Source: Minisyncoccota bacterium
Lineage (GTDB): Bacteria > Patescibacteriota > Minisyncoccia > Phycocordibacterales > UBA5272
Direction: 5' to 3'
Length of the DNA: 64,000 nucleotides
Assembly (NCBI GenBank): GCA_046350775.1
Contig: JAXLZS010000001.1
Coordinates: 156,379-220,378 of the forward strand
The position numbers and the translations under genes are program-made. Below, in pieces: positions 21,454 to 56,182 of the stretch; the stretch's first letter is position 1, and each line of letters starts with the position of its first letter. The notes beneath the pieces were generated by a model, which ran no database searches, was not told where the DNA came from, and saw only the letters and a list, made by a program, of their open reading frames with translations.

Positions 21454-21521
21454 GACAGAATTTTTTATTTATTGTTATTTAATATGAACATTCTATTTTA
21501 TCATACATAAAATATATAAAA

Positions 21522-21539
21522 TAGTCAAGTCTTAAAAAT
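21522..21539 (+). promoter_or_regulatory. same motif upstream of dnaX (TAGTCAAGTCTTAAAAAT)
   Basis: Direct reading. Confidence 0.55.
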
Positions 21540-22643: not shown

Positions 22644-22672
22644 ATATAATTAATAATGAAAAGAAATGAAAA

Positions 22673-22701
22673 GAATCGATTCCAAAGCTGAATCGATTTT
22701 T
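22673..22701 (+). terminator. rho-independent terminator of dnaX
   Basis: Self-complementary gaatcgatt...aatcgatt stem followed by TTTTTATTT. Confidence 0.65.
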
Positions 22702-23020
22702 ATTTAGATTATTAAATAAAGCTTTTTTATAGATATACGTGTCGTAAAAGATATATTGTGCGAAGCGTATATAAAAAAGAAAGAGACTTCTCTATATGGA
22801 TTTATATCTACAGAGACTTTATAAATACTTTTAATTTATTTTTATACAAAAACAAAACGCGACCGATATGAGGCGGTGCGTTTTGCTTTAGTCACCCAAG
22901 ACTAGTAGGAGAGACAGGAGTGTGGGATTCTTCTATCTCCCCTATCAAAAATTATAACAAAAGACTTTTGATATACAATATTTACAAAATAAAAATTTAT
23001 TTTATTATTTTATTTTTTAA

Positions 23021-24874: not shown

Positions 24875-24892
24875 TTTTTTCAGACTTGACAA
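24875..24892 (-). promoter_or_regulatory. same motif upstream of gltX (TTGTCAAGTCTGAAAAAA on the - strand)
   Basis: Direct reading. Confidence 0.5.
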
Positions 24893-24961
24893 ATTATATT
24901 TAGAATGATACATTATATTTAGTTTTATTTTTTTAATGAACCTTTTAAATATTTTCAAAAA

Positions 24962-38613: not shown

Positions 38614-38640
38614 GATAAATATCAAATAAAAACAAAAAAA

Positions 38641-38674
38641 CCTTCCATGAAAATGAGAGGGTTTTTTGTTTTTT
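38641..38674 (+). terminator. rho-independent terminator of rpmA
   Basis: ccttc...gaggg imperfect stem followed by TTTTTTGTTTTTT. Confidence 0.55.
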
Positions 38675-38727
38675 CTCGTATTGAGAAAAAACAACTTAAA
38701 CTTCTAAAAATAAGAGGTCACAAATTT

Positions 38728-38762
38728 TGTAAAATAAAAATCCCTCTGCATTTTGCAGAGGG
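38728..38762 (-). terminator. rho-independent terminator of rplI
   Basis: ccctctgca-ttt-tgcagaggg 9-bp stem. The T-run is on the - strand (aaaataaaaa on +). Confidence 0.7.
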
Positions 38763-38865
38763 AAAAAGATAGGTACGTTCGAAACTTAAACTTCTAAAAT
38801 GACATGAAATGAAAAAAGTTTTCACTCCCCAATAAGTATACTCTATCTAAAAATATTGTCAAATA

Positions 38866-50006: not shown

Positions 50007-50037
50007 ATTTAGAGATTATAGCATGTAAAATTATGAA

Positions 50038-50066
50038 AAGAAAAAAACCACATTTCTGTGGTTTTA
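50038..50066 (-). terminator. terminator of the 50079..50591 gene
   Basis: aaccaca-tttct-gtggtt stem. T-run on the - strand. Confidence 0.6.
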
Positions 50067-50078
50067 CTAAAATTTAGC

Positions 50079-50591
50079 CTAATCAAAGTTTCCGTCATAT
50101 CGGTCAAGGGTTGGCCTTGAACCAATCTTTCCCCCTGTCGTAAAATAATCTCCGCTTGGAACAAGCTGCTCACGAATTTCACTGTAAAGACTTTTGTGAA
50201 TTTTCCAATGCGATTCATCTTTTAACACTGTTTCCTCATCACCGATTTTGTACTTCACAATTGTATCACGTACAATACGACTGATCGTTTTGAATTTTTT
50301 AGCAAGTTCGCTATCTGTGTACCAATCTTCTTCTACTACAACTTTTTTCATTTTCGCAACATCTGAAAATTCTTGAATACTCTCAAGAACCTGTGCAACA
50401 AACGCTTGATTGTATGCGTAAGTATGATATCCATTTTTACGCTTAAAGATTGCAATGGCCATATCTGGAAACTGTTCACGCAGATTATCGATAATTCGAT
50501 TAGCTTTTGCTCTTGGAAAATCTGATGGCATTTTTTCATAAATACCAGATTTTGTACAATATCCTTCAGGAACAATAAATGGTTTTGACAT
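50079..50591 (-). CDS. hypothetical protein on GC-atypical DNA (likely horizontally acquired)
   Basis: ORF. Local GC is about 45-49% against about 29% in the flanks. It has its own terminator. Confidence 0.45.
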   Translation of the reverse strand: MSKPFIVPEGYCTKSGIYEKMPSDFPRAKANRIIDNLREQFPDMAIAIFKRKNGYHTYAYNQAFVAQVLESIQEFSDVAKMKKVVVEEDWYTDSELAKKFKTISRIVRDTIVKYKIGDEETVLKDESHWKIHKSLYSEIREQLVPSGDYFTTGGKIGSRPTLDRYDGNFD

Positions 50592-50750
50592 TTTGTTTTA
50601 TTTTTATAATGAACAAAAAAGATTCCTATTTTGAAATCATAAATTGTTTTATGATCTCAAAAAGGGAGGCAAGAAATACTTGCCTTATCTTTATAATTCT
50701 CTAAAAGTTTACTCTACATGAAAGCTTTTTCCTTTTAGAACACCTGGGAG

Positions 50751-51272
50751 CTATCGAGAGCCAGGTTCGCTGGAAATATATGCTATTGGTCTAGGAACAA
50801 ACAATGTTTGATACCTGAGAGGTATACCCCATTCTTTATCGTAACAACATCCGCAATTCAACTGATGATATTCAAAACCTTCACGGTTTGTATGAATATA
50901 ATCACGAAACTTAAACACTTGCGGAACTTCAGAAGAAGTTTGTGTCACGAAAAGATTGGTTACATACCAATCCAATGCATAAATTTTCCAACCGTGTAAG
51001 GGCACTATTTGCTGAAATCTATATTGTCTTCTACCAAACCATTCCACATTACTATAGCGATCAATAAAATCAGCTACAGATTTTACAGCTACAGGAAATG
51101 AATGAATTACTTCATCTATAATCTGATGGTTATGGTCAAAGAAAAACAATTTTTTGTAGTTCTGATTTCTATATGCTTGAATATTTTTAGCCATATAGTT
51201 TTGATCTCGCAAAAATACCACTGAATTACTTTTCATATAATACAAATAAAAGAACAAAAAATTGCAACACAC
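50751..51272 (-). CDS. hypothetical protein on GC-atypical DNA. The true start is probably an internal ATG (MKSNS... or MAKNIQ...)
   Basis: ORF. The listed start is GTG. A hairpin terminator lies downstream (aggcaag-tatttc-ttgcct plus T-run). Confidence 0.4.
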   Translation of the reverse strand: MCCNFLFFYLYYMKSNSVVFLRDQNYMAKNIQAYRNQNYKKLFFFDHNHQIIDEVIHSFPVAVKSVADFIDRYSNVEWFGRRQYRFQQIVPLHGWKIYALDWYVTNLFVTQTSSEVPQVFKFRDYIHTNREGFEYHQLNCGCCYDKEWGIPLRYQTLFVPRPIAYISSEPGSR

Positions 51273-51830
51273 CCTCTTCTGATATTGCGTCCTTTAACAC
51301 AAAATTAAGAGCGTCGAGTTGTACCTGATTAGTACTTGGTGTCTGGATTTTTCCTCTCCAGTGGAGTTTGTTTTACTAATTCACTTTCATAAACTTATGC
51401 TTCCCACAAGAAATTATTCTAAAGATTCTTATCTTTGCAATTAGACAAGAAATACTTCTTAGAAAATCGCTCCTTATAAAATCCTCTATCATATAGATAG
51501 TTTTTGGATTTTACGAGCGAAAGGAAGGGGTAAATTAGTCGTATTAACTTACAAAATCACTCTCGTAAGTTCAGTAATATCTCTAAAGCCATACAATTAT
51601 CATTTGTCCGTATAAGATAAAGAAAAAGGGCTCTACTTTAAGAGTTTTATTACTACTGCCAAAGAATACGTAAGGCAACTTTAATATTAGGTGTGCCGTT
51701 CAAACCTAATTAGAATGATAGCATAATATAATTTATTTGTCAAGTGTTTTTAGATAAAAATCAAATATTCTTCTTAATATTTGCAAAAAAGTACTGTAAT
51801 ACAAGAATATTTTAGAAGTATAAGGAAAAT

Positions 51831-52235
51831 GAAAATAAAAAACCGTCGCAAAATAATGCGCGACGGCTTTTAATCGGAGCTTTAAGGCAAGATTTTTGTG
51901 GAAAATTGTGCACATTTTTCCAAATTCTTACTCCAACCTACTTCAAGCTTTATGCCACTGAGTGTAAAAAGCTATTTAATTAATAAATTATTTGGCTCCA
52001 TGGCCAAAAATCCATTAAATCATCAGACACATTTTCTTTCGTGTCAGCCCAGATTTGTTAGGGCTCCCCATAGAAGTCGATGGGTATGATTATTTTGCAG
52101 ATAAAGGTGCGGCGGGACATCTTGCCAATCTTGGCACGAAGACTTTTTTCAGTCCAATGCGCCCCGAATCGAATACTAATTGTCATAATAATTACAATAT
52201 TAGCACCAACTATCCATATCTTATCACAAGAAATA
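51831..52235 (+). ncRNA. candidate structured non-coding RNA of unknown class, flanked by ~85-bp direct repeats
   Basis: No credible ORF, elevated GC, a promoter-like TTGTCAAG box upstream, and an internal hairpin at 51843..51866. Short similarities to RNase P RNA conserved blocks (GGGCTCC.ATAG..., AAAGGTGCGG, GGCACGAAGAC) are unconvincing by eye. Confidence 0.15.
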
Positions 52236-52415
52236 TTTTTTGTCAATATCTTTTAACCAAAAATCAAGGATTTTTCTCATAATTCGCAAAAAAGTATTGC
52301 AAAATAAGGATTTTTTAAAGATCTTAATAAAATATTATTTTCCTATTTATTAAAAATTCTATGGAAATATATCGATTTGAAATATTTTTAATTATGTGTT
52401 ATAGTATTAAAGATA

Positions 52416-52610
52416 TTGTACTTTTTTAAATCTTATAAAAAAATCAACATGGGATGGTATTTATTTTTCATTGGTTTACTTTTTTCTGGTATAGGTTTAT
52501 TTTTGCTGGAAAATAAAATTATTAAAACAGTAGGCATAATTTTGGTAGTAATAGCAGCCATAATGATACTCTTAATACTTATTCATGGAATCAGCAAAAG
52601 ACAAAACTAA
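52416..52610 (+). CDS. small membrane protein (2 TM)
   Basis: ORF. The second copy of the duplicated promoter-like block lies upstream, and a terminator follows. Confidence 0.35.
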   Translation: MYFFKSYKKINMGWYLFFIGLLFSGIGLFLLENKIIKTVGIILVVIAAIMILLILIHGISKRQN

Positions 52611-52611
52611 C

Positions 52612-52650
52612 CAAAACCCCGCTCTAATGCGGGGATTGTTTTTTTTATTT
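52612..52650. terminator. bidirectional terminator between the 52416 gene and rpoD
   Basis: ccccgc-tctaat-gcgggg stem followed by TTGTTTTTTTTATTTT. Confidence 0.7.
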
Positions 52651-54089
52651 TAAAAATTCTTTAATCTGTATGCTTTTTCGTGATCACGAATCTTTTCGTG
52701 TACCTTGGCTTCAATCTGACGAATACGCTCACGAGTCACCTGAAATTCTTCTCCCACCTCTTCGAGTGTATGCATGACGCCATTGTATTGTCCGAGTCCA
52801 TTTCTCATTTCTACAATTTTTCTTTCTTTTTCAGACAGATCCATAAGTATTTCATTTATCTGATCTGCTAGAATTCTGCGACTCGCCTCTTGATCAGGAG
52901 AGAGAATCTTGTCGTCTGAGACAAACTCACCAAGTGATGATTTATCATCATCATCTCCTGTTGGCTTTTCAAGCGAAAGAGTCTCTTGATCTATATTTTC
53001 AATGACATGAATCTTTTCTACATCGACACCCATCTCATCAGCTATCTCTTCAGCTAGAGGCTCTCTACCCAAATCTTGAGAAAGTCTTCTGAGGACTTGT
53101 TTGTACTTGGCAATAGTCTCTACCATGTGTACCGGGATACGGATTGTACGAGATTGGTCAGCTAGAGCACGAGTGATACCTTGTCTGATCCACCAACATG
53201 CATAAGTCGAAAACTTATATCCTTTACTAAAGTCATATTTTTCGACAGCTTTAAAGAGTCCGAGATTTCCCTCTTGTATGAGATCAAGCAATGTGAGATT
53301 TGGACTTCTACCTACATATTTTTTTGCAAATGTCACCACAAGACGAAGATTAGCCTTGGCTAATATATTTTTTGCCTCCTCATCCCCCATTTCTATTCTT
53401 TTTGCTAATTCTTTTTCTTCTTCAGAAGAAAGTAGTGGATACTGACCAATTTCTTTTAAATAAATTTGAATACTATCATGATTGGCATCATCTTTTGCAA
53501 GTCTAGCAATGTCTTCATCCATGTCGAGCAAATTACTACCATCAAGAATATCCACTCCCGCGGCTGATAGTTTTTCGTAAAGTTCATCAATAAAAGTAAT
53601 ATCTCTCTCTAGATCGGGAAAAATTTTAATAATATCATCATAAGTTATAAATCCACGCTCTTTACCTTTTTTGATAAGTTCTGCCTCTTTTTCTATTTTT
53701 TCTATTTCATTTTTAGAAAGTTTTGTGACTACTTTTACTTTTTTATTATTATCACGAGCTAATTTAGCTTTATTTTTTTCAATTCTTTTTTGTCTTTCTT
53801 TTTTATCTTTAGCATTTTTTACTTCACGCCTCTTTTTTTCTTCAATTTTTTCTTTAGCACTAAGAGCTTTTAAATTTATAAATTTATTAGATTTTTCTTT
53901 TTCAGAAGAATTCTTTTTGATTATTTTTACTTTTGTCTTTTTGGTTGCCTTTTTAACAATTTTGGATTTTGTTGTGTTCTTCTTTTTTGTAGAAATAGTT
54001 TTTTTAGCTGCTTTTTTTACAGTTTTTACTTTAGTTTTTTTTACTATTTTTTTAACTGATTTCTTTGCTTTTTTAGTGTTTTTTTTCAT
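52650..54089 (-). CDS. rpoD: RNA polymerase sigma-70 factor RpoD with a ~130-aa Lys-rich N-terminal extension
   Basis: Regions 2-4 conserved ([16 protein letters not shown]..., [20 protein letters not shown]). The N-terminus is a poly-K/AKK low-complexity stretch. Confidence 0.9.
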
Positions 54090-54316: not shown

Positions 54317-56086
54317 CTAATTTTCTAGTTTTTGATTTTTTAATTTTTGTATCTCTTGATGAAAAAGAGTAATGTTTTTTAAATCTAGTTCTTGATCAAT
54401 CTCAGTCTTTTCTTTATTTTGAATCTGTTTTATCTCTTCTTGAAAAATTTCTATTTTATAATTCCTAGCTAAATCGTGAAGTTGTCTATCGACAAACTTT
54501 TTTTCATGACTTTGATAATATCTATTTTTAGAAAATTCTTTTTCGAGTCTAGATATCTCTGGCTCTAAAATCTCTTTCGGAAAATCATTTTTATCTTCCA
54601 AAAATATCTTATTAAAATCAAGACTTTTATTTTCTTCAGAGTTAAAATTATTTTCCATAAACCTCTCCTCTTTGATTTTTTTCCAATGTAAAATAGCTAA
54701 AATTTCTTTTAACAATCTATCTCTTTTGCTTGCTAATTTTATATTAGATTCATCTTTTTTTAAATCTTCTTCAGGAGAAGACTTTATAGAATCAAGATTT
54801 TCTACCATCTTAATCTTTTTTAAATCATTGTATATATCGATCTCTTCTATTTGTAATTTATTAGCTAAAAAACGAATAAAATAAGATCTGTCCATATCGC
54901 TCTCTATAGCTCGTAAAAATGGCAAAACTTCTAAGCGAATCTCTTTTAATCTTTCTCTATCGTCCTTCACTTTTTCAAAAATAGTATTTGTAAGATATTC
55001 TACAATGTGTATTCTTTTATCAATTAATTTTTTCCATTCTTCACCACCAAAATCTTTTATAAGATCAGCTACATCTTTTACTTCTGATTTTTTTGGAATA
55101 ATAAAAACATCTAGTCCACCATAAAGAGCAAGCGAGCCGGCTCTTTTCATAGCCTTTTCTCCAGCCTCATCTTGATCAAAAGAAAGTAATACTTTGTCAG
55201 CAAATCTTTTTAGTATTTTTACATGATCATCTGTAAAGCTTGTACCAGATACTGCCACCACATTTTCGACTCCAGCCTGATGACTCATAATGAGATCCAT
55301 CTGACCCTCGACTATTATCGCCTCTTTTTTGTCAGCAATACTTTTTTTGGCATTATTATACCCAAAAAGAATTTTACTTTTATGATAAATATCAGTTTCT
55401 GGAGAATTTATATATTTCCCAGATTTACCATCATCAAATTTTGGTAAAATTCTAGCAGAAAATCCGACAACATTGCCGAAAGTATTTTTAATTGGAAAAG
55501 TTATCCTACCACGAAATCTATCAAACCATTTATCTTCATTTTCCTTTTTTATAACTATCCCCGCAGCCATCATTTCTTCTGGAGAAAAACCTTCTTTTGA
55601 TAAATTTATAAATTGATCTCGCCAACCATTTTCTCCACCAAGAGCGAATCCAATATTAAACTTTTTAATAGTCTCAGGAAGAAGTCCACGCTCACCAAGA
55701 TAAACTTTTGCTTCTGGTGAATTTTGGAGATTCTTCTCATAATGATCACTAGCCTTTTGGAGTAGCGATATAAGATAGGATTCTTTATCTTTTTCTTGTT
55801 TTTTATATGGAGTCAATTTTACTCCAGCCCTTTCAGCTAGAATGGTGAGAGCTTCATAAAATGGTACACTTTCTAATTTTTCTACAAAAGAAAAAATATC
55901 TCCATGCTGGGCACAGCCAAAACAATGATAAGTACCTCTATCTGGCGAGACATAAAAACTAGGAGTCTTTTCATTATGAAAAGGACAGCGACCCTTAAAT
56001 TGTGAGCCAGCTTTTTCAAGTCTGACATAAGTCGAGACCACATCTAAAATAGATAAAGTTTGCTTGATTTGATCTTTTGGATTCAT
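54317..56086 (-). CDS. dnaG: DNA primase
   Basis: Zinc ribbon CPFHNEKTPSF...CFGC and Toprim domain (EGQMDL, DQDEAG). Confidence 0.9.
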   Translation of the reverse strand: MNPKDQIKQTLSILDVVSTYVRLEKAGSQFKGRCPFHNEKTPSFYVSPDRGTYHCFGCAQHGDIFSFVEKLESVPFYEALTILAERAGVKLTPYKKQEKDKESYLISLLQKASDHYEKNLQNSPEAKVYLGERGLLPETIKKFNIGFALGGENGWRDQFINLSKEGFSPEEMMAAGIVIKKENEDKWFDRFRGRITFPIKNTFGNVVGFSARILPKFDDGKSGKYINSPETDIYHKSKILFGYNNAKKSIADKKEAIIVEGQMDLIMSHQAGVENVVAVSGTSFTDDHVKILKRFADKVLLSFDQDEAGEKAMKRAGSLALYGGLDVFIIPKKSEVKDVADLIKDFGGEEWKKLIDKRIHIVEYLTNTIFEKVKDDRERLKEIRLEVLPFLRAIESDMDRSYFIRFLANKLQIEEIDIYNDLKKIKMVENLDSIKSSPEEDLKKDESNIKLASKRDRLLKEILAILHWKKIKEERFMENNFNSEENKSLDFNKIFLEDKNDFPKEILEPEISRLEKEFSKNRYYQSHEKKFVDRQLHDLARNYKIEIFQEEIKQIQNKEKTEIDQELDLKNITLFHQEIQKLKNQKLEN

Positions 56087-56125: not shown

Positions 56126-56137
56126 ATCCTTGACAAA
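56126..56137 (-). promoter_or_regulatory. motif core upstream of dnaG (TTGTCAAGGATT)
   Basis: Direct reading. Confidence 0.45.
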
Positions 56138-56182
56138 TATAATACATTATGCTATATTATATATAGATTGTAATAAACCATA

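Follow-up and report, generated by a model that had tools for sequence, protein, structure and literature searches.

What are two imperfect direct repeats of about 85 base pairs (bp) doing on either side of a segment that is free of open reading frames (ORFs), in a bacterium whose DNA is otherwise densely coding? The repeats lie in a 64,000-nucleotide (nt) stretch of contig JAXLZS010000001.1 from a Minisyncoccota bacterium (GenBank assembly GCA_046350775.1), which was analysed whole and is called the window here. The original prediction had seen in them either a duplicated promoter region driving a non-coding RNA (ncRNA) or an inserted cassette that brought its own promoter copy. We conclude that the two repeats are probably a duplicated module, made up of a promoter and its upstream regulatory region, on the minus strand, which would drive orphan candidate ncRNAs in a cargo island. 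The kind of idea first put forward holds up with its strand reversed, as copy 2 of the repeat, rather than copy 1, would drive the segment in between; a cassette that brought its own promoter would suit the setting in an island. The finding is an orphan instance of element kinds that are already known, namely a duplication of a canonical promoter and a candidate ncRNA that runs from promoter to terminator in a cargo island.

The setting makes this block stand out. Coding sequence occupies 90.7% of the window, and the 1254-nt gap that holds the two non-coding units described below, A and B, is its longest non-coding stretch, the next longest measuring 377 nt. In the tiny and tightly packed genomes of Patescibacteria, a 1.25-kb non-coding block with two strong predicted promoters and a clean terminator is unusual, and we regard it as a reasonable candidate for lineage-specific regulatory RNAs in an uncultivated group for which almost nothing is known on such RNAs; a literature search on Patescibacteria promoters and ncRNAs found nothing relevant. 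The RNA itself is an orphan prediction of modest general interest.

The repeat copies and the predicted promoters at their edges

An all-against-all gapless comparison of 84-nt windows over the 64 kb, about 2e9 pairs, recovers the two copies as the strongest dispersed repeat. At an offset of 503, given by the positions of TTTGTCAA at 51736-51743 and 52239-52246, they agree without gaps at 60/84 positions, and the best 84-nt pairing (51733 vs 52236) reaches 62/84; the runner-up dispersed pair has 55/84, and the sole higher score belongs to a 45-nt tandem array at 602-786. A profile made from both copies recovers no other sequence of the window: the copies themselves score E 7e-30 and 3.5e-27, and the next match E 0.089. 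The repeat is genuine, above chance and present in exactly two copies in the window, as predicted, with the positions originally given for copy 2 off by 1-3 nt. In composition, with a G+C (GC) content of 0.20-0.21, both copies match ordinary intergenic DNA.

Direct repeats around a discrete segment in a cargo island could also be the ends of a small inserted element, that is, attachment-site (att)-like or terminal direct repeats enclosing a cassette of ~400 bp, and the sole homologue of the neighbouring gene p170 does adjoin a serine integrase. We find this origin barely credible: at 71-74% identity the copies fall far below fresh att sites or target duplications, they finish exactly in functional-looking promoter boxes with conserved spacing, no recombinase ORF occurs in 50026-52641, and the fetched loci contain no empty site, no single-copy variant and no other copy.

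The promoter boxes also settle the direction of the duplicated module. Read on the other strand, the shared TTTGTCAA gives its reverse complement TTGACAAA, which is a -35 box; the promoters therefore belong to the minus strand, and copy 2, not copy 1, is the one that would drive the ORF-free segment. A consensus scan of 50600-52800 returned as its two top sigma-70-type matches P1 and P2 (Table 1), both on the minus strand and each at the edge of a repeat copy. Both combine a -35 element near TTGACA with a -10 element near TATAAT at a distance of 16-18 bp, and the spacer and -10 region of P1 are closely like those of the promoter at 56130-56158.

P1 and P2 belong to a class that the genome evidently uses. 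A census of the whole window with the pattern TTGAC[AT]-N16-18-TANNNT found 15 promoter sites, 13 of them intergenic; ten sit 25-113 nt upstream of a same-strand start codon, and this pattern is therefore taken to be the genome's working promoter type. Within that class the two promoters are nevertheless exceptional, because 443 and 946 nt, respectively, separate them from the next minus-strand ORF, so that each precedes hundreds of non-coding bases rather than a nearby gene. The predicted sites point to an extended consensus for the lineage, AAGAC-TTGACA-N17-TGnTAnnnT, which is a usable gain in its own right. Its form AAGAC-TTGACA-N17-(TGn)TAnnnT stands 25-56 nt ahead of start codons, for example at 1009-1038, 21500-21528, 24886-24914 and 56130-56158. 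Several genes, such as dnaG at 56086, have a -10-like box merely 10-14 nt before their ATG and no obvious Shine-Dalgarno sequence.

What sets P1 and P2 further apart is how far their likeness extends upstream. When aligned on the -35 box, their upstream sequences agree at 60/90 positions, against 29.9 +/- 4.9 (maximum 51) for the remaining pairs drawn from the window's 14 canonical promoters; farther upstream, over -125 to -61 alone, the agreement is 44/65, against 21.0 +/- 3.7 (maximum 32) for other promoter pairs. The similarity thus reaches well past a generic A/T-rich UP element. With TTGACA, a 17-bp spacer, TGn-TAnnnT and an A/T tract at about -40 to -60, P1 and P2 look like sigma-70 promoters with an extended -10 and an UP element, but ordinary promoters of that kind do not share sequence with one another to about -125, as these two do. 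Because the similarity runs far beyond both the core promoter and the UP-element zone, shared upstream control appears to be the most likely role of the 85 nt, which would then comprise an A/T-rich UP-like region and a common predicted regulator site through which both units could be controlled together.

Such an arrangement has a parallel in the early promoters of temperate phages that share operators, for example lambda PL/OL and PR/OR. As in lambda, two promoters lie in one region of mobile DNA with similar flanking regulatory sequence, which implies common control, and a neighbouring gene, p170, weakly matches a phage anti-repressor family. Unlike lambda PL and PR, however, P1 and P2 are tandem rather than divergent, they share sequence upstream of the -35 box rather than over the core promoter, and neither a repressor gene nor a clearly palindromic operator was found.

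Table 1. Positions in the window of the repeat copies, the predicted promoters, units and terminator, and the surrounding genes
Feature	Position	Strand	Description
Repeat copy 1	51736-51830	minus	Upstream region of P1, including the -35 box; starts right after the unit B terminator; GC 0.20
Repeat copy 2	52239-52333	minus	Stretch ahead of P2 from about -125 to -30, -35 box included; GC 0.21
Core promoter P1 (predicted)	51715-51743	minus	TTGACA-17-TATCAT, 11/12; TGn extension (TG before the -10)
Core promoter P2 (predicted)	52218-52246	minus	TTGACA-17-TAAGAT, 10/12; TGn extension (TG before the -10)
Unit B	51832-52211	minus	Predicted ~380-nt non-coding transcript, P2 to terminator; corresponds to the ORF-free segment
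Intrinsic terminator of unit B	51838-51871	minus	13-bp stem (6 G-C), 8-nt loop, then TTTTTTATTTTC
Unit A	51273-51707	minus	~435-nt non-coding stretch, predicted transcript from P1; GC 0.333
Orphan ORF p147	50751-51194	minus	Downstream of unit A
p170	50079-50591	minus	Only island gene with a homologue (one, 73% identity)
Small membrane-protein gene	52377-52634	plus	Divergent; ATG 52449-52610, 53 amino acids (aa); own promoter 52377-52405; bidirectional terminator 52617-52634
Strain-specific cargo block	50026-52641		Between rpoD and rmuC; 2.6 kb; holds the repeats, P1, P2, units A and B, p147, p170 and the membrane-protein gene

Units A and B as candidate transcripts

Under the proposed mechanism, each repeat copy spans the region from about -125 to the -35 box TTGACAAA, followed at a 17-bp spacing by an extended -10 element (TGnTAnnnT), and P2 and P1 would act as tandem, same-direction promoters of the housekeeping type. 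Transcription from P2 would start near 52211, cross the ORF-free segment for ~380 nt and stop at a GC-rich hairpin and U-tract (51871-51832), giving a discrete and probably non-coding RNA, unit B. Copy 1 begins immediately past that terminator, and P1 would start a second transcript near 51707, with a non-coding, well-folding 5' part of ~435 nt, unit A, from which it would read into the orphan ORF p147. Copy 1 is thus predicted to drive a second non-coding stretch leftward, outside the coordinates considered originally. No terminator was detected between unit A and p147, and unit A is a candidate for either a long leader or a second ncRNA. The two units have no sequence similarity to each other, their local alignment score falling under the shuffle mean, so they are not paralogous. 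The analysis shows the repeat itself, the consensus matches of the promoters and the terminator with their strand, the lack of coding signal and of homologues, and the setting in an island; from these we infer that the units are transcribed, that the RNA has a function and that a regulator binds the upstream region.

The end of unit B is marked by the strong hairpin that had already been noticed, whose stem has 13 pairs at 51838-51871. It had been described as internal to the segment; its position and strand instead identify it as the 3' intrinsic terminator of a segment read on the minus strand. A T-tract (U in the RNA) comes straight after the GC-rich stem-loop on the minus strand alone, the plus strand having just CTTTTAATC there, and the hairpin is more stable in the minus orientation (-18.3 kcal/mol, against -13.1 on the plus strand).

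Folding statistics lean the same way. Without its terminator, unit B gives a folding z of -3.46 (minus strand) against -1.43 (plus strand), and unit A gives -3.50 against -0.58; as statistics on single sequences, these values favour the minus strand but are suggestive only. The GC content of unit B is 0.379, whereas other intergenic DNA of the window has 0.18-0.20 and coding DNA 0.319.

These strand differences bear on the geometry of the original prediction, in which copy 1 would drive a plus-strand RNA of the segment and copy 2 the gene for a small membrane protein that follows it. Both copies are indeed upstream, on the plus strand, of the segment and of the 53-aa gene. Moreover, TTGTCAAGTCTT, the reverse-strand form of the motif, lies 44-72 nt ahead of many same-strand gene starts; it is conserved in relatives (L016 about 1095, L007 about 6540). 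In most cases, however, the motif TTGTCAAGTCTT/TTGTCAAG ahead of these genes is the -35 box of a divergent promoter, the divergent gene accounting for its presence: on the gene's own strand, TTGTCAAGTCTT/TTGTCA and the nearest -10 element are separated by anything from 17 to 28 nt, whereas the opposite strand invariably has a spacing of 16-18 nt and a TGn. Furthermore, no canonical plus-strand promoter is common to both copies; the membrane-protein gene does exist, but it has its own promoter outside the repeat and copy 2 is not that promoter; and in a plus-strand RNA the hairpin would be at the 5' end with a tail of merely 4 T, in a segment whose plus-strand folding is the weaker. We therefore consider the plus-strand geometry very unlikely and retain the minus-strand module.

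The claim that the segment between the copies is free of ORFs stood up well. On a codon-usage log-odds scale trained on 41 long genes of the window, which average +0.36 per codon with a minimum of +0.20, all ORFs in 51273-52415 score between -0.09 and -0.48, below the gene minimum, and the stretch between the copies offers no more than mechanical ORFs, 60-75 aa long and non-coding in their codon usage, and a minus-strand ORF of 42 aa (52186-52058). In a scan of every frame by 120-nt windows nothing looked coding, except faintly one plus-strand frame with +0.14 to +0.22 at 52020-52140. The 75-aa plus-strand ORF of that frame, the sole segment ORF searched to that depth, had zero matches in an exhaustive HMMER search of 1.84e9 representative proteins and no Pfam or PHROG match. 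These results, with no coding-like ORF and, for the ORF searched, no protein homologue, speak against a protein gene or pseudogene in the ORF-free segment.

Nor does the block resemble a known RNA family. Rfam 15 (4227 families) was applied to the whole window at the gathering score, with 0 matches in 64 kb, and to 51250-52700 at E <= 10, where no RNase P, transfer-messenger RNA (tmRNA), 6S, signal recognition particle (SRP), riboswitch or intron family was matched; the matches that did appear at E <= 10 are chance similarities driven by the terminator, the best being SAM-SAH at 22.6 bits (threshold 40) and STnc240 at 27 (threshold 55). ARAGORN found no transfer RNA (tRNA) or tmRNA at the locus. 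The weak likeness to RNase P RNA that had been noted by eye does not, therefore, survive the comparison. Unit B resembles RNase P RNA and tmRNA in its size range alone (about 350-400 nt), and it differs from RNase P, tmRNA, 6S and SRP RNA in that its locus is absent from close relatives, from which an essential RNA would not be missing.

Another comparison is offered by orphan ncRNAs, small or large, of A+T-rich genomes, which Klein, Misulovin and Eddy reportedly sought in 2002 as G+C-rich, well-folding intergenic islands. Like such RNAs, unit B would come with a dedicated promoter and intrinsic terminator; ordinary intergenic DNA has about half its GC content of 0.38, and on the strand predicted to be transcribed its folding is more stable than that of shuffled controls. 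It differs from them in that no homologues were found and in that its GC excess may be foreign in origin. At ~380 nt, it would also be much longer than typical trans-acting small RNAs.

Several observations weigh against the duplicated module driving ncRNAs, and they need to be set beside the evidence for it. Neither the units nor the repeat had a homologue among 80 loci from genomes and 80 from metagenomes, on the L198 contig discussed below or in IMG/VR; searches with the units and the repeats of 20 close Patescibacteria rpoD loci, of INPHARED phages and, in two exact-pattern scans, of IMG/VR gave nothing, or chance 16-mers in GC-rich phages, and the two-copy profile matched nothing in about 170 loci, related or fetched. 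The locus has 100% identity among contigs from eight samples, bar one A in a homopolymer at 50601, which leaves no variation for covariation. With a folding z of about -3.5, the units belong to the tail of the genomic background without standing alone in it: 24 random 340-nt segments of the window had a mean z of -0.73 with a standard deviation of 1.7 and a minimum of -5.3, and 1/24 fell below -3.46. The raised GC of the units could simply reflect a foreign origin, because the neighbouring island genes are also GC-elevated. Finally, an internal 15-nt sub-repeat is evident in copy 2 only, and no regulator able to bind the shared upstream region was identified.

Some of these observations suit a history of gene decay, in which the 1.25-kb stretch would be one or more eroded protein genes of an imported element, the promoters and terminator leftovers, and any RNA functionless. 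The block is strain-specific cargo made up almost wholly of orphans at a hypervariable spot, the GC of the stretch resembles that of the coding parts of the island and its excess may be foreign, and nothing in it is conserved elsewhere. Moreover, unit B and its surroundings contain four mechanical ORFs of 60-75 aa, two overlapping plus-strand ORFs (the first from 51898, the second at 52055-52282) can be read as one frameshifted ORF, and a plus-strand frame, frame 2, is weakly positive at 52020-52140. Yet no ORF has coding-like codon usage, the best candidate found no counterpart in the deep protein search, and the putative plus-strand ORF would cross the minus-strand promoter P2. The segment fits exactly between a promoter and a terminator of a single strand, which is also the strand that folding stability favours, and the locus is intact and identical in eight samples. 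Gene decay, although it deserves to be taken seriously, is in our view unlikely.

A bolder proposal would keep the duplicated module and see in unit B, and perhaps in unit A, a new class of large structured ncRNA on a mobile cargo island, co-switched through a shared upstream operator and serving, for example, an undescribed RNA-based mobile-element or defence function. We hold this to be a distinctly long shot.

The cargo block and its neighbours

RpoD relatives place the organism in Patescibacteria (Paceibacteria/Nomurabacteria-like), with 78-98% RpoD identity to the closest metagenome-assembled genomes. Habitats in which it occurs are represented by JGI 3300045352 and 3300045353, SRR14234072 and SRR14234074, SRR23702460, SRR23702504 and SRR23702505, and SRR26348422. 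In the closest syntenic relative, L005, rpoD and rmuC are neighbours too, but they are 750 bp apart (L005 6305-7057), with unrelated small ORFs of 90 aa and 62 aa in between, and the other relatives carry different genes after rpoD. Among the loci examined from related genomes and from metagenomes, none resembled the block between the two genes of the window in either DNA or protein. The rpoD-rmuC junction is a cargo hot spot, holding 2.6 kb in the window vs 750 bp in L005.

The only link from the block to other DNA is p170, whose homologue lies at 1225-1731 of L198, a contig of 42% GC, among small hypothetical genes. A large serine recombinase/integrase (phrog_95, E 7e-60; L198 3327-4673) is encoded 1.6 kb from it, and p170 is the only gene common to that contig and the window, which implies that p170 may travel with mobile elements across hosts of differing GC content. 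The match of p170 to the phage anti-repressor family is weak (E 8e-5), and its AlphaFold model, with a predicted local distance difference test (pLDDT) score of 48.6, is too poor for a fold search; IMG/VR searches with p147 and p170 were negative. Because the block is strain-specific and holds orphans, and because of the serine integrase near the p170 homologue and the phage anti-repressor likeness, we read it as mobile-element cargo, probably acquired horizontally. Just upstream of p170, the window and L199 differ by a single A in an intergenic A-run (window 50601 vs L199 2095).

Downstream of unit A, p147 matches nothing but itself among 5.8e9 proteins and has no Pfam, PHROG or PADLOC match. 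Its codon score is about 0, and its AlphaFold2 model is unusable (pLDDT 38.8, too poor for a fold search). The membrane protein on the other side of the repeats is small, hydrophobic and two-helix; its 53-aa ORF is called as a gene in public assemblies, and it is likewise an orphan among 5.8 billion proteins.

With a two-helix hydrophobic protein divergent from the candidate RNA gene, a non-coding region directly upstream of an orphan gene and a setting in mobile DNA, a toxin-antitoxin-like pair comes to mind, in which unit B RNA would control the membrane protein as a type I toxin, or unit A RNA would serve p147 as a type III antitoxin. Little in the locus bears this out. Neither unit has above-background complementarity to the mRNA ends of the membrane-protein gene, p147, p170, rpoD or rmuC (z -1.5 to +1.4). 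For a type I system, the duplex energy of unit B with the mRNA of the 53-aa gene is no better than with shuffled targets (z +0.41), the genes do not overlap, and unit B is, as a matter of general knowledge, far longer than known type I antitoxin RNAs. For a ToxIN-like type III system, a tandem repeat array would be expected upstream of p147, but neither this nor a TIGR- or CRISPR-like array was found in 50500-52700 at a Tandem Repeats Finder score of at least 30. Together with the lack of a PADLOC or Pfam match, these results make such a pair highly improbable.

On the rpoD side, the gene in the window encodes sigma regions 1.1 to 4. Ahead of region 1.1, RpoD (52650-54089, minus strand) has a lysine-rich N-terminal extension of ~130 residues with repeated KK-x-KK, which is poorly conserved, the matches of relatives starting at residue 46-70.

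Other non-coding and repeat features of the window

Across the whole window (1-64000), no tRNA, tmRNA or Rfam-recognisable RNA was found. The second-longest non-coding stretch, a 377-nt gap between convergent genes at 22644-23020, has a GC-rich patch at about 22860-22950 and no Rfam match.

A second orphan promoter, TTGACA-16-TATACT (11/12), lies on the minus strand at 38741-38862, in the intergenic gap 38614-38865. About 75 nt on, it is followed by a strong terminator (TCCCTCTGCAAAATGCAGAGGGA and a T-run), and the two would delimit a candidate small RNA of ~95 nt. The same gap holds TTTTAGAAGTTTAAGTT twice, two more hairpin-plus-T-run elements follow, and there is no Rfam match.

The 45-nt tandem repeat at 602-786, with 4.1 copies and 86% matches, lies inside the minus-strand ORF 487-960 and therefore encodes a protein repeat of 15 residues.

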